A DNA stretch of 62,353 nt, the filler included, from Caldilineae bacterium (GTDB lineage: Bacteria; Chloroflexota; Anaerolineae; DTLA01), in NCBI GenBank assembly GCA_037446815.1. It is 7 parts of 7 records of this genome, joined end to end, with 100 filler letters (N's around TTAATTAATTAA, not from the genome) between each part and the next. Parts side by side here need not be neighbours in the genome. Positions count along the whole stretch, not along the records: positions 1 to 8,959 come from JBBIHX010000122.1; 6 more parts are not named here. One strand, written 5' to 3'. The position numbers and the translations under genes were made by a program. The notes beneath the pieces were generated by a model, which was not told the origin of the DNA, did no database searches, and saw nothing but the letters and a program-made list of their open reading frames with translations. This document shows, piece after piece, positions 523 through 2,220 of this stretch (its first letter is position 1; every line of letters starts with the position of its first letter).

Positions 523-2220
523 ATGCGAACAGGCCTCAAATGGCTCGCCCGATTCGCGCTCGTCATCCTGGCGGCAGCCCTGGTCGCCGCGCCCGCCGCG
601 GCCCAGGACTACCGCTTCCAGGTCAACGAGCGCCTCGTGCACGTGTACATCAACGACGATGGCTCCATCTGGATTGACTACAACATCACCTTCACCGCAG
701 ACCCAGGTTCCCATCCCATAGACATCGTGGACATCGGCCTGCCCAGTTACGACTACAACCTGGCCGAGGTGAAAGCGGACGTAGGCGGCGTAGCCATCAC
801 GGACATCCGCCACTCGGAATACGTGAAGCCGGGGATTGAGGTGCACATGGGCAAGTTCACCATCCCGCCCGGCGGCACCGGCTCGCTCCACGTGTTGGCG
901 CGGGTGCGCAACATGGTCTTCCAGGACACGTCGGATCCTGAATACGCCAGCATGGAGTTCATCCCCCACTGGTACGACAGCGCCAACGCCCACGGCACGA
1001 TGCATTTGGAGATCGTGATTCACTTCCCCGAGGGCGTAACGAGCGAGGAGTCGCGGTATCACGACACCAAGTTCACCGACGCGGCCATCGTGGACAATCG
1101 GGTTACCTACGCCTGGATTTACCCCAATGCATCGCCCAGCCAACAGTACAAGGTCGGCGTGTCCTTCCCTAAGAAGTACCTCAAGAGCGGCATTGACCTG
1201 AAGGTTACGCCGGAGCCTCTCCCTCCGGCGGCGGGCGGAACCGACATCACCGACATCCTGTGCAGCGGCCCCATGTGCACCCTCCTGGGCGGCCTTGGGT
1301 TCATCGTCTTCATGGTTGTTGCCATCCGCAGGGGCAATGTCCGCAAGATGAAGTACCTGCCCCCAACGGTGGGCGTGGAGGGCGCGGGCGTCAAGCGCGG
1401 GCTGACGGCGGTGGAAGCGGCCATCCTGCTGGAAGCGCCCCTCAACCGCGTCCTGACCATGATTCTGTTCGGCCTGCTGAAGAAGGGCGCGGTTACGGTG
1501 CTATCCGATGACCCGCTGCGTCTCCAGGCGAACGTGCCCGCGCCGGACGACCTGCGCGACTACGAGAAGGAGTTCCTCACGTGCATTGTGGACAACAGCC
1601 TGGACGAGAAGAAACTTCGGCAGATGATGGTGGGGCTGGTCAAAGCGGTGAATGACAAGATGAAGGGCTTCAGCCGCAAGGACTCGGTCGCCTACTACAA
1701 AGACCTGGTGAGCCGAGCCTGGCAGCAGGTGGAGGCCGCCGAAACGCCCGAAGTCAAGGCCCAGCGGCTGGACGAAGGGCTGGAGTGGACCATGCTGGAC
1801 GAGGATTGGAACAAGCGCGTCGGCCGCACCTTCGGCGACGAGCCGGTGCTCCTGCCGCGGTGGTGGGGATACTATCGCCCCTGGGCCACCAGCACCAGCA
1901 CCGCCTCGGGCGGCACGCAGACTGTATCCGCGCCCAAGACATCCACCGGCGATGCGGGCCGCACCCCCACCATGCCCACGTTGCCGGGCGCGGCCTTCGC
2001 CAATACCATCGTGTCGGGCGTAGAGAGTTTGTCCAACCGCGTCGTGTCCAGCGTGGAGCGCTTCACGGGAAGCATCTCGTCCGTCACCAACCCGCCGCCC
2101 CCGCCGCCCAAGACCAGCAGCAGCGGACGCTGGCGGAGCGGCGGAGGCAGTGGTTGCGCGTGCGCTTGCGCGTGCGCCTGCGCGGGCTGCGCGTGCGCTT
2201 GCGCGGGAGGAGGTCGGTAG
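523..2220 (+). CDS. DUF2207-like single-pass membrane protein with a C-terminal Cys-Ala repeat tail (putative rSAM substrate)
   Basis: GGAGG SD; signal peptide ending AAPAAA-QD; beta-rich ectodomain; TM helix followed by RRGNVRKMK; S/T/P/G linker; ends GCACACACACAGCACACAGGGR. Confidence 0.8.
   Translation: MRTGLKWLARFALVILAAALVAAPAAAQDYRFQVNERLVHVYINDDGSIWIDYNITFTADPGSHPIDIVDIGLPSYDYNLAEVKADVGGVAITDIRHSEYVKPGIEVHMGKFTIPPGGTGSLHVLARVRNMVFQDTSDPEYASMEFIPHWYDSANAHGTMHLEIVIHFPEGVTSEESRYHDTKFTDAAIVDNRVTYAWIYPNASPSQQYKVGVSFPKKYLKSGIDLKVTPEPLPPAAGGTDITDILCSGPMCTLLGGLGFIVFMVVAIRRGNVRKMKYLPPTVGVEGAGVKRGLTAVEAAILLEAPLNRVLTMILFGLLKKGAVTVLSDDPLRLQANVPAPDDLRDYEKEFLTCIVDNSLDEKKLRQMMVGLVKAVNDKMKGFSRKDSVAYYKDLVSRAWQQVEAAETPEVKAQRLDEGLEWTMLDEDWNKRVGRTFGDEPVLLPRWWGYYRPWATSTSTASGGTQTVSAPKTSTGDAGRTPTMPTLPGAAFANTIVSGVESLSNRVVSSVERFTGSISSVTNPPPPPPKTSSSGRWRSGGGSGCACACACACAGCACACAGGGR

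Follow-up and report, generated by a model that had tools for sequence, protein, structure and literature searches.

A near-invariant Cys-Ala tail of a DUF2207-like membrane protein as a candidate substrate of an adjoining radical SAM/SPASM enzyme

The DNA analysed here (hereafter the window) is a stretch of 62,353 nucleotides, filler included, from a Caldilineae bacterium genome (assembly GCA_037446815.1, phylum Chloroflexota), and we focused on a tail of alternating Cys and Ala residues that closes a 565-aa membrane protein whose gene adjoins that of a radical S-adenosylmethionine (SAM) enzyme with a SPASM domain. This tail is the most conserved part of its carrier protein, and purifying selection acts on each of its positions, i.e. 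on Ala and Gly as well as on Cys. We propose, with roughly even confidence, that the tail is the substrate of the adjoining radical SAM/SPASM enzyme, which would cross-link it by thioethers while it stays on the membrane protein. The relation of substrate to enzyme is strongly inferred from sequence, since constraint at the protein level, linkage to the enzyme gene, co-occurrence with it and an enzyme architecture typical of maturases of peptides that are ribosomally synthesised and modified after translation (RiPPs) all point to it. The thioether chemistry, suggested by analogy, would be the weakest step of this proposal, as the enzyme falls in no characterised family and scores highest against PqqE.

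The tail-bearing protein is encoded at 523..2220 (+ strand), with GGAGG 12 nt before its ATG, and its gene is single copy in its own genome. Read in the frame of the open reading frame (ORF) 523-2220, the codons of positions 2152-2220 are GGT, five TGC codons each followed by an Ala codon (GCG, GCT, GCG, GCC and GCG), the Gly codon GGC, three further TGC codons followed by GCG, GCT and GCG, and finally GGA GGA GGT CGG TAG. The tail itself, CACACACACAGCACACAGGGR (2155..2217, +; aa 545-565), has the form (CA)5-G-(CA)3-GGGR and is the C-terminus of the protein, i.e. 8 TGC codons alternate with GCG, GCT or GCC, a single Gly breaks the series, and GGGR precedes the stop. The original prediction had described these codons exactly (8 TGC, Ala as GCG, GCT or GCC, one Gly break), and translation of 523-2220 also returned, just as given there, the linker TNPPPPPPKTSSSGRWRSGGGSG and the segment PTLPGAAFANTIVSGVESLSNRVVSSVERF upstream of it, the C-terminus reading ...TNPPPPPPKTSSSGRWRSGGGSG-CACACACACAGCACACAGGGR. 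Within this genome, Tandem Repeats Finder reports an imperfect hexamer array over the same codons (TGCGCG x9, 75% matches, 2155-2205); because such an array looks repeat-like in a single genome, the choice between a DNA repeat and a protein motif has to be made with relatives.

A homologue search was therefore carried out with words from residues 1-500 only, so that the tail was excluded, and 8,000 candidates were scored, at least 3,546 of which are homologues of the tail protein (90% clustering level). CACACACAGCACACAGGGR is the C-terminal end in 119 of the 120 best homologues (44-92% identical), and Ser replaces the central Gly in the remaining one. When the window protein is counted with these close homologues, (CA)4-G-(CA)3 is found in 102/121, (CA)5-G-(CA)3 in 18/121 and the Ser-for-Gly form in 1/121; the eight Cys originally described thus hold for this genome but not as the conserved state. 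Additionally, a tail-less query (window 523-2037) was run on 401 genomes of the phylum and on 1.84 billion cluster representatives. It matched 29 of the genomes, with the tail present in all 26 close loci and a shorter (CA)3-G-(CA)3 tail in 3 of these 26 genomes. Among the cluster representatives, 836 matches were obtained (E <= 1e-3, 50% clustering); in the best 150 of them, 70 end in ...CACACAGCACACAGGGR, 53 carry variants of the same blocks and 27 lack such an end, 22 of the latter being shorter than 500 aa and mostly breaking off within the conserved body. The universality of the tail rests on these three tail-independent searches, i.e. first-500-residue, 401-genome and cluster-representative. 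An alignment of 111 representatives has invariant columns, over the whole protein, at C558, A559, C560, A561 and G563 only, and the mean frequency of the top residue is 0.91 for the last 17 residues vs 0.40 for the rest of the protein. Across 478 distinct C-termini, position x of C-x-C (n=2,525) is occupied by Ala in 2,465 cases (97.6%), by Val in 58 (2.3%) and by another residue in 2.

The codons of the tail were compared in 80 loci of species-representative genomes, where the tail is present in 80/80 (79 with Gly, 1 with Ser). The scan patterns for this set included the tail motif itself, and the metagenome locus set was also found in part through the tail; both sets are thus partly tail-selected and give no proof of universality, while the genome set is informative for codons. 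All 81 tail DNAs, the window included, are distinct strings, in which TGC and TGT are used about 50:50 along with every codon for Ala and for Gly (four each), six Arg codons and the three stops, and the residue is altered in 1 of 1,539 codons (81 tails x 19 codons). Such saturation of synonymous change with a single residue change indicates that purifying selection on the tail, as a protein motif, is very strong. A functionless DNA-level repeat, be it a TGCGCN hexamer microsatellite or a GC-rich low-complexity end, could be suspected from the array scored by Tandem Repeats Finder in this genome and from the variable length of the first block (3 to 5 CA units among relatives). We consider it practically discounted, as all synonymous codons are in use and yet the residues, the frame and the terminus are retained throughout. 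The microsatellite was accordingly rejected, and the claim that the tail is maintained at the protein level was upheld: in orthologues the tail is kept in frame while synonymous change is saturated, and the check set out with the original prediction (random tail length or frame, or no tail at all) did not refute it.

Several classes of tail were distinguished around the constant core CACACA-G-CACACA-GGGR, i.e. a one-block form, (CA)4-5-GGGR, the canonical two-block form, a two-block 3+4 form, CACACAGCACACACAGGGR, and a three-block form, CVCAC-xx-CACxCAC-VS-CACACA-[GS]GG[VA][GR]. Nearly all of them share a last block CACACA with [GS]GG behind it. One remote relative (L110; 22-25% identical, same architecture) has (ACHS)n/ACVHD repeats in place of Cys-Ala; its tail gene lies at 1126-2841 (-) and its radical SAM gene, which also encodes a RiPP recognition element (RRE), at 2-1108 (-), and its body scores 16.2 bits against TIGR04222 (cut-off 43). 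An RRE-radical SAM gene adjoins the tail gene in relatives with other Cys tails as well, namely (ACHS)n in L110 and the 3+4 form in L109. In the genome that carries this 3+4 tail (G247; L109/L111), the tail gene has the radical SAM orthologue (43% identical, 366 bits) on its upstream and not on its downstream side.

Stand-alone tail-bearing proteins were sought among proteins of 30-309 aa (E <= 1e-3), which gave 702 matches, the best 120 of which were inspected. All 120 have the canonical tail and, judged by their first residues, are C-terminal pieces of the same family; no small stand-alone precursor was found among them. As the 120 inspected matches are all family fragments, the tail is neither a portable module nor a free small precursor. 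Three proteins carry a foreign N-terminus in front of the last ~50 residues of the family, tail included (P0296, RuvA-like PF01330; P0361, response-regulator PF00072; P0384, signal peptide) and are probably assembly, chimera or gene-calling artefacts.

Adjacency of tail gene and enzyme gene was assessed by hidden Markov model search of all ORFs in the fetched loci, and enzyme counts were restricted to loci whose downstream sequence extends for 1,400 bp or more. Among the 69 such genome loci, 61 have the radical SAM gene immediately behind the tail gene, 4 have it at another place in the locus, and in 4 none was found. Three of the latter (L003, L015 and L075) have a 612-647-bit orthologue on another contig of the same genome, and in the fourth (L010) the gene is truncated by a block of N. 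In metagenomes, the two genes are adjacent in 56/62 loci (three-block 30/31, canonical 21/25, one-block 2/2, other 3/4), the remaining three-block locus having the radical SAM gene upstream. The enzyme is split over two ORFs in L023 and L076, and an IS200-type transposase gene (6696-7310) is inserted between tail gene and radical SAM gene in L019. A homologue of a small zinc-ribbon protein is encoded just upstream of the tail gene in 68/71 genome and 55/58 metagenome testable loci. Within the 401-genome sample, the enzyme (E <= 1e-60) was found in 30 genomes, which cover all 29 genomes with the tail protein; the extra one (G218) has a paralogue-type match only, with a stop codon. Related genomes are not independent, and we therefore regard these counts as a tight association, not as statistical proof.

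The enzyme gene (2222..3589, +; 455 aa) starts 1 nt after the stop of the tail gene and encodes an RRE, a radical SAM and a SPASM domain. In Pfam, it matches PqqD with 27.1 bits (cut-off 23.4, aa 54-99), Radical_SAM with 88.7 (29.5, aa 141-296) and SPASM with 41.5 (21.5, aa 368-427). The CxxxCxxC motif for the SAM-binding [4Fe-4S] cluster (C145/C149/C152) is invariant in 60 sequences, as are, in 60 orthologues, C354, C368, C386, C423, C426, C432 and C436 of the SPASM region, C376 being conserved in 93%. The pattern expected of a SPASM domain is CX9-15GX4C ... CX2CX5CX3C ... C, and the spacing found here is C368-x12-G-x4-C386 and C423-x2-C426-x5-C432-x3-C436. None of the NCBIfam equivalog cut-offs was reached in the 25 of 76 matches listed, the best being PqqE (144.9 vs 381), and TIGR04463, the CrpC family, is not among these 25. 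A predicted structure (pLDDT 84.5, pTM 0.85) places strands at 20-58 and helices at 60-108 in the RRE region. Its nearest folds are SuiB (E 1.2e-16, TMq 0.59), SkfB (6efn, 2.4e-16), PqqE (1.5e-13), CteB (5why, 7.8e-12) and anSME (5.7e-10), while the nearest solved chains by sequence are PqqE (6c8v, E 1.3e-25) and SkfB. SuiB and SkfB have a fused RRE, and the full-length predicted fold of the enzyme matches both. Judged by its domains, the enzyme thus has the architecture of a RiPP maturase.

The two genes may also be coupled in translation. A Shine-Dalgarno-like element, GGAGGAGG, lies inside the Gly codons of the tail (2206..2213, +), 8 nt before the next ATG, with the stop codon TAG at 2218-2220 and the ATG at 2222. 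It is likely the ribosome-binding site of the radical SAM gene and a means of translational coupling; given this distance and the 1 nt between stop and start, the codon choice of the tail may double as a ribosome-binding site here. At other loci, the gap between tail gene and enzyme gene is 6-160 nt.

Concerning the carrier, library scans gave no Pfam or NCBIfam family for the whole tail protein nor for its last 86 residues alone; against Pfam, DUF2207 models included, the window protein matched 0 families at E <= 1, and neither it nor the relatives P0259 and P0197 matched TIGR04222 (E <= 0.1 for the window protein). An AlphaFold model built with 111 sequences (mean pLDDT 86.3) has an N-terminal signal-like helix, the signal-peptide-like segment terminating in AAAQ. 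It is followed by a predicted extracytoplasmic beta-sandwich domain (601..1176, +; aa 27-218, pLDDT mostly >90) that resembles OST1/ribophorin I and the DUF2207 N-domain; with VIA-align, the luminal domain of OST1/ribophorin I (6c26_1) gave Z 14.8, rmsd 2.8 over 178 aligned residues, and M1 aminopeptidase N-domains Z 10-12, while Foldseek returned 8b6l_O (E 5.5e-9). A single transmembrane helix (1270..1347, +; aa 250-275 in the model) is followed by RRGNVRKMK. On account of the signal peptide and of the positive-inside rule applied to these residues, the C-terminal half would be cytoplasmic, and we infer that the tail faces the cytoplasm.

The predicted cytoplasmic part is a helical domain (1399..2037, +; aa 293-505, pLDDT mostly >90), in which the helical/beta fold of the model spans about aa 293-460. 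It is possibly GOLPH3/Vps74-like (VIA-align: GOLPH3 3kn1_A Z 7.1, rmsd 4.2, 158 aligned; Vps74 2zih_A Z 6.2), a likeness to be taken as a lead only, since Z 7.1 is in a range common for helical models. Two conserved helices (1987..2088, +; aa 489-522, i.e. 489-507 and 511-522, block pLDDT 84-92) precede a linker that is first Pro-rich and then Ser/Gly-rich and varies in sequence and length (2089..2154, +; aa 523-544). The consensus before the linker is lPtLPGadFA..vV...FT..vT..TNPpP in 319 distinct canonical sequences, and the related motif iPGadFA...EkFan.i.P.p occurs in 50 three-block sequences, so that PGadFA...F...P.P is shared by two tail classes. The segment PTLPGAAFANTIVSGVESLSNRVVSSVERF, singled out in the original prediction as a possible internal leader, thus proved to be real and conserved, and it corresponds to two confidently modelled helices. 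The end of the protein is predicted to be disordered (pLDDT <50 from aa 532, over 532-557). With regard to family, the DUF2207 N-domain gave weak matches in 4/63 relatives (best 23.9 bits vs cut-off 24.4), the nearest named cluster in a language-model search of the ESM Atlas is DUF2207_C (0.89), and a search of the window's own genome for PF20990 found none. Based on these models, we interpret the carrier as DUF2207-like but divergent, a membrane protein that would cross the membrane once and have its tail in the cytoplasm.

Other genes accompany this pair. The first gene of the cassette (120..488, +) encodes a small membrane protein of 122 aa with two N-terminal hydrophobic helices and a C-terminal CxxC...CxxC zinc ribbon, for which Pfam gave weak zinc-ribbon matches only, none reaching its cut-off. 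Downstream of the radical SAM gene, a class I SAM-dependent methyltransferase is encoded at 3712..4461 (+; Pfam Methyltransf_11, 85.3 bits), the best NCBIfam match being the DVU_1556 family (70 bits vs cut-off 155); matches to it were found with tblastn in 48 of 189 fetched loci, mostly immediately behind the radical SAM gene(s) or a short way upstream. In 52 loci (L002, L013, L014, L017-L019, L022, L025-L027 and 42 more), the RRE-radical SAM gene has a paralogue directly after it, from which CxxxCxxC and CX2CX5CX3C are both missing in 52/52. This second protein can therefore be described as a cluster-less 'pseudo radical SAM' protein and is possibly a scaffold or chaperone; a search of the genome from which the window comes (93.6% complete) returned none. 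A survey of the neighbouring genes in relatives and in the window found no protease or exporter in the conserved gene set of the cassette.

The proposed mechanism follows the layout of leader, spacer and core suggested by a conserved segment, a flexible linker and a terminal repeat. The N-terminal RRE of the enzyme would dock on the conserved segment that precedes the linker; the enzyme would then abstract hydrogen from the Ala, Val or Gly positions and join their carbons to the sulfurs of neighbouring Cys. The product would be a set of thioether rings (sactionine or ranthionine) in a tail of the form CACACA(CA)0-2-G-CACACA-GGGR, and the modified tail would remain part of the membrane protein. 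Assistance or further decoration of the tail may come from the zinc-ribbon protein, from the methyltransferase and from the cluster-less paralogue that many relatives have. Fe-S enzymes work in the cytoplasm, and a tail that is predicted to be disordered (pLDDT <50) on the cytoplasmic side is compatible with a substrate role. Of the uses first suggested for the alternating Cys, serial thioether formation is thus favoured circumstantially by the adjoining and co-occurring RRE-radical SAM-SPASM gene, whereas release of a peptide by proteolysis gained no support from a conserved cassette without protease or exporter and from the search for stand-alone short forms, which found none.

Several points weigh against this proposal. 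The locus sets were found in part via the tail motif and cannot show that the tail is universal, and adjacency and co-occurrence, counted in related genomes that are not independent, would be expected of any functional partnership. Past CX2CX5CX3C, where SPASM domains canonically have a last Cys, the 60 sequences show no conserved Cys (none follows C436). The enzyme stays below every sactisynthase cut-off (SkfB 90.6 vs 300, StsB 87.6 vs 625, AlbA 83.2 vs 850 bits) and scores best against models of PqqE, which forms C-C cross-links, and of heme-pathway SPASM proteins, with MftC at 97.8 vs 265, which makes a thioether chemistry tentative. These scores could also suggest that the tail is the substrate of the enzyme for a chemistry other than thioether formation, i.e. 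oxidation of Cys to formylglycine or another carbonyl as by anSME, epimerisation of Ala/Val, giving a peptide in which D and L residues alternate, C-C cross-links of the PqqE or SuiB kind, or a C-terminal reaction as by MftC, possibly followed by methylation. SuiB, PqqE and anSME are among the nearest folds beside SkfB and CteB, a methyltransferase recurs nearby, and the target stands at the extreme C-terminus with an invariant GGGR, as the targets in PQQ and mycofactocin precursors stand at the extreme C-terminus too. Such a chemistry and an unmodified metal or Fe-S site are the rivals to be taken most seriously. We nevertheless judge the former unlikely: the PqqE, heme-pathway SPASM and MftC scores are themselves far under their cut-offs, and the anSME motif, C/S-x-P/A-x-R, is missing from the tail. 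Moreover, Cys is the invariant repeated residue here, and the characterised RRE-SPASM enzymes with Cys-rich cores described in PMC13692751 and PMC10288494 give thioethers.

The near-invariance of the tail is a further difficulty for the thioether proposal, as known thioether cores vary between species and a cofactor-like or metal-binding structure fits such a core at least as well. Conservation that extends to Ala, Gly and GGGR is unusual for a RiPP core and suggests a defined, cofactor-like final structure, which may possibly bind metal after modification. One could go further and suppose that the cassette builds a hitherto unknown protein-borne prosthetic structure, i.e. a ladder or cage of Cys-Ala units, turned by the enzyme into thioethers or altered otherwise, on the cytoplasmic end of a DUF2207-like protein. 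Maybe methylated and loaded with metal or Fe-S, it would be a stationary centre for redox chemistry or metal on the cytoplasmic side of the membrane and not a secreted natural product. We put this forward tentatively, as a doubtful possibility; if true, the near-invariance across proteins that are 30-50% identical would reflect a cofactor-like structure, comparable in kind to PQQ, mycofactocin and the cross-links of QHNDH but anchored to a membrane receptor-like protein. Metal could also be bound without any modification, by a metal-thiolate or Fe-S array whose C-x-C blocks line a single side of a strand or hairpin, in which case the enzyme would be a partner for some other reason (cluster transfer, electron relay or another substrate). 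C-x-C blocks resemble metallothionein motifs, and the tail has six to eight Cys in this spacing, in blocks one or two residues apart; near-invariance is also more in keeping with a defined metal site than with the usual RiPP core, and the authors of the CrpA study likewise suspect metal binding as an end role, according to their report (PMC13692751). An unmodified array nonetheless appears quite improbable to us, because the peptide-recognition RRE would be purposeless in a mere cluster partner, Ala is as constrained as Cys although simple metal ligation does not require it, no metallothionein or metal-binding family was matched in the Pfam and NCBIfam scans, and the accompanying cluster-less paralogue and methyltransferase resemble a maturation pathway. 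Finally, a recognition segment, a linker, a C-terminal core and an RRE enzyme follow the logic of a RiPP precursor, and the large protein might thus be a giant leader or scaffold from which the modified tail is cleaved to yield a small RiPP natural product. This seems very unlikely, since the conserved set has no protease or exporter, its neighbours being zinc-ribbon, methyltransferase, pseudo-radical SAM and housekeeping genes; the core is nearly invariant over hundreds of species, unlike antibiotic-type cores; and the best 120 of the 702 short tail proteins are family fragments, not small precursors.

As for the surroundings of the cassette, a sigma-70-like promoter, TTGCCG-17-TATAAT, is found at 51..79 (+), as a consensus match only (10/12 consensus positions), and the next match on the + strand is at 4737-4766. 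Two long open frames overlap the tail gene (1501-2256, -, 251 aa; 1785-2231, +, 148 aa); they were not treated as genes, as such frames are typical of GC-rich DNA. The genes past the cassette appear unrelated to it, i.e. SSB (4815-5216), DUF3467 (5259-5570), a LigT-like phosphoesterase (5596-6168), SLOG cluster 4 (6192-6635), a phosphoribosyltransferase (6643-7332) and an ammonium transporter (7263-8741, -). The contig of the cassette (G000:C122) covers positions 1-8959 of the window only, the rest (8960-62353) being N or other contigs.

No description of the tail motif or of the cassette was found in open-access papers and bioRxiv. To our knowledge, RRE radical SAM/SPASM enzymes have been described almost exclusively as producers of small secreted peptides. 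The first demonstration that an enzyme installs thioethers on a full-size protein dates from 2026, as reported in PMC13692751. The family described here is much larger than CrpA/CrpC, with at least 3,546 clusters at 90% identity and 836 at 50%, and has no Pfam or NCBIfam model. That a tail of 17-21 residues surpasses all the rest of a membrane protein in conservation suggests a defined chemical structure that is probably essential, and the tail is probably the target of a protein modification not yet described. The hypothesis lends itself to direct testing, since it involves a short tail and one enzyme and since a carrier, Bellilinea caldifistulae (L036), is in culture. Resolving the chemistry of the tail could provide a first biochemical handle on DUF2207-like membrane proteins, DUF2207 itself having no function that we know of.

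Among known systems, the closest parallels come from protein-modifying and peptide-modifying RRE-SPASM enzymes and from other Cys-tailed membrane proteins. CrpC, assigned to TIGR04463 in PMC13692751, is an RRE-radical SAM-SPASM enzyme that puts thioethers on the Cys-rich, 28.8-kDa CrpA of Methanococcus voltae (Dieter et al. 2026, PMC13692751). As reported there, that system shares with ours an enzyme gene adjoining a gene for a full-size protein with C-terminal Cys repeats, a target that is a protein and not a short peptide, the lack of an evident protease or exporter and a suspected metal-related role; CrpA differs in being soluble, with ten 17-residue C-x-x-Q/D repeats, whereas here a nearly invariant C-A end of 17-21 residues closes a 565-aa membrane protein. 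The maturases of sactipeptides and ranthipeptides (SkfB, AlbA, StsB and CteB; Precord et al. 2023, PMC10288494) have the same order of RRE, radical SAM and SPASM and a Cys-rich substrate, but the substrates described are short and secreted, with variable cores, in clusters with proteases or transporters and without a membrane protein tail. Our enzyme lies outside the characterised sacti- and ranthisynthase families, its SkfB, StsB and AlbA scores being far under the cut-offs, and the carrier is a 565-aa membrane protein instead of a short precursor with protease or exporter. Among TIGR04222 membrane proteins, Ser/Gly-rich C-terminal tails with Cys are putative substrates of MNIO enzymes (Microb Genom 2025, PMC12452194); like our carrier, they are membrane proteins with a low-complexity Cys tail whose gene stands beside that of a Cys-modifying RiPP-type enzyme, and modification of bona fide proteins is proposed there, but the partner is MNIO (DUF692) and not a radical SAM enzyme, and the tails are variable and predicted to be periplasmic.

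DUF2207 proteins (PF09972/PF20990) share with the carrier a signal peptide, a beta-sandwich ectodomain, a membrane helix, a cytoplasmic domain and a Gly-rich C-terminal end, although the window protein has no match to the family; in open-access literature listings, neither a radical SAM partner nor a Cys-Ala tail is described for them. PqqE/PqqA and MftC/MftA are similar in that SPASM enzymes act near the C-terminus of a ribosomal product with a PqqD-type RRE, but the enzyme of the window is under the equivalog cut-offs of PqqE and MftC (381 and 265), and PqqA and MftA are short, have no Cys repeats and yield free cofactors. C-x-C arrays, which metallothionein-like peptides use to bind metal-thiolate clusters, are present in the tail, and no metallothionein family was matched in the Pfam and NCBIfam scans. 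By the family-model scores listed, the system would be assigned to none of the families compared, and by analogy it appears to resemble the protein-modifying end of the sactipeptide and ranthipeptide world, as represented by CrpA/CrpC and QhpC/QhpD.

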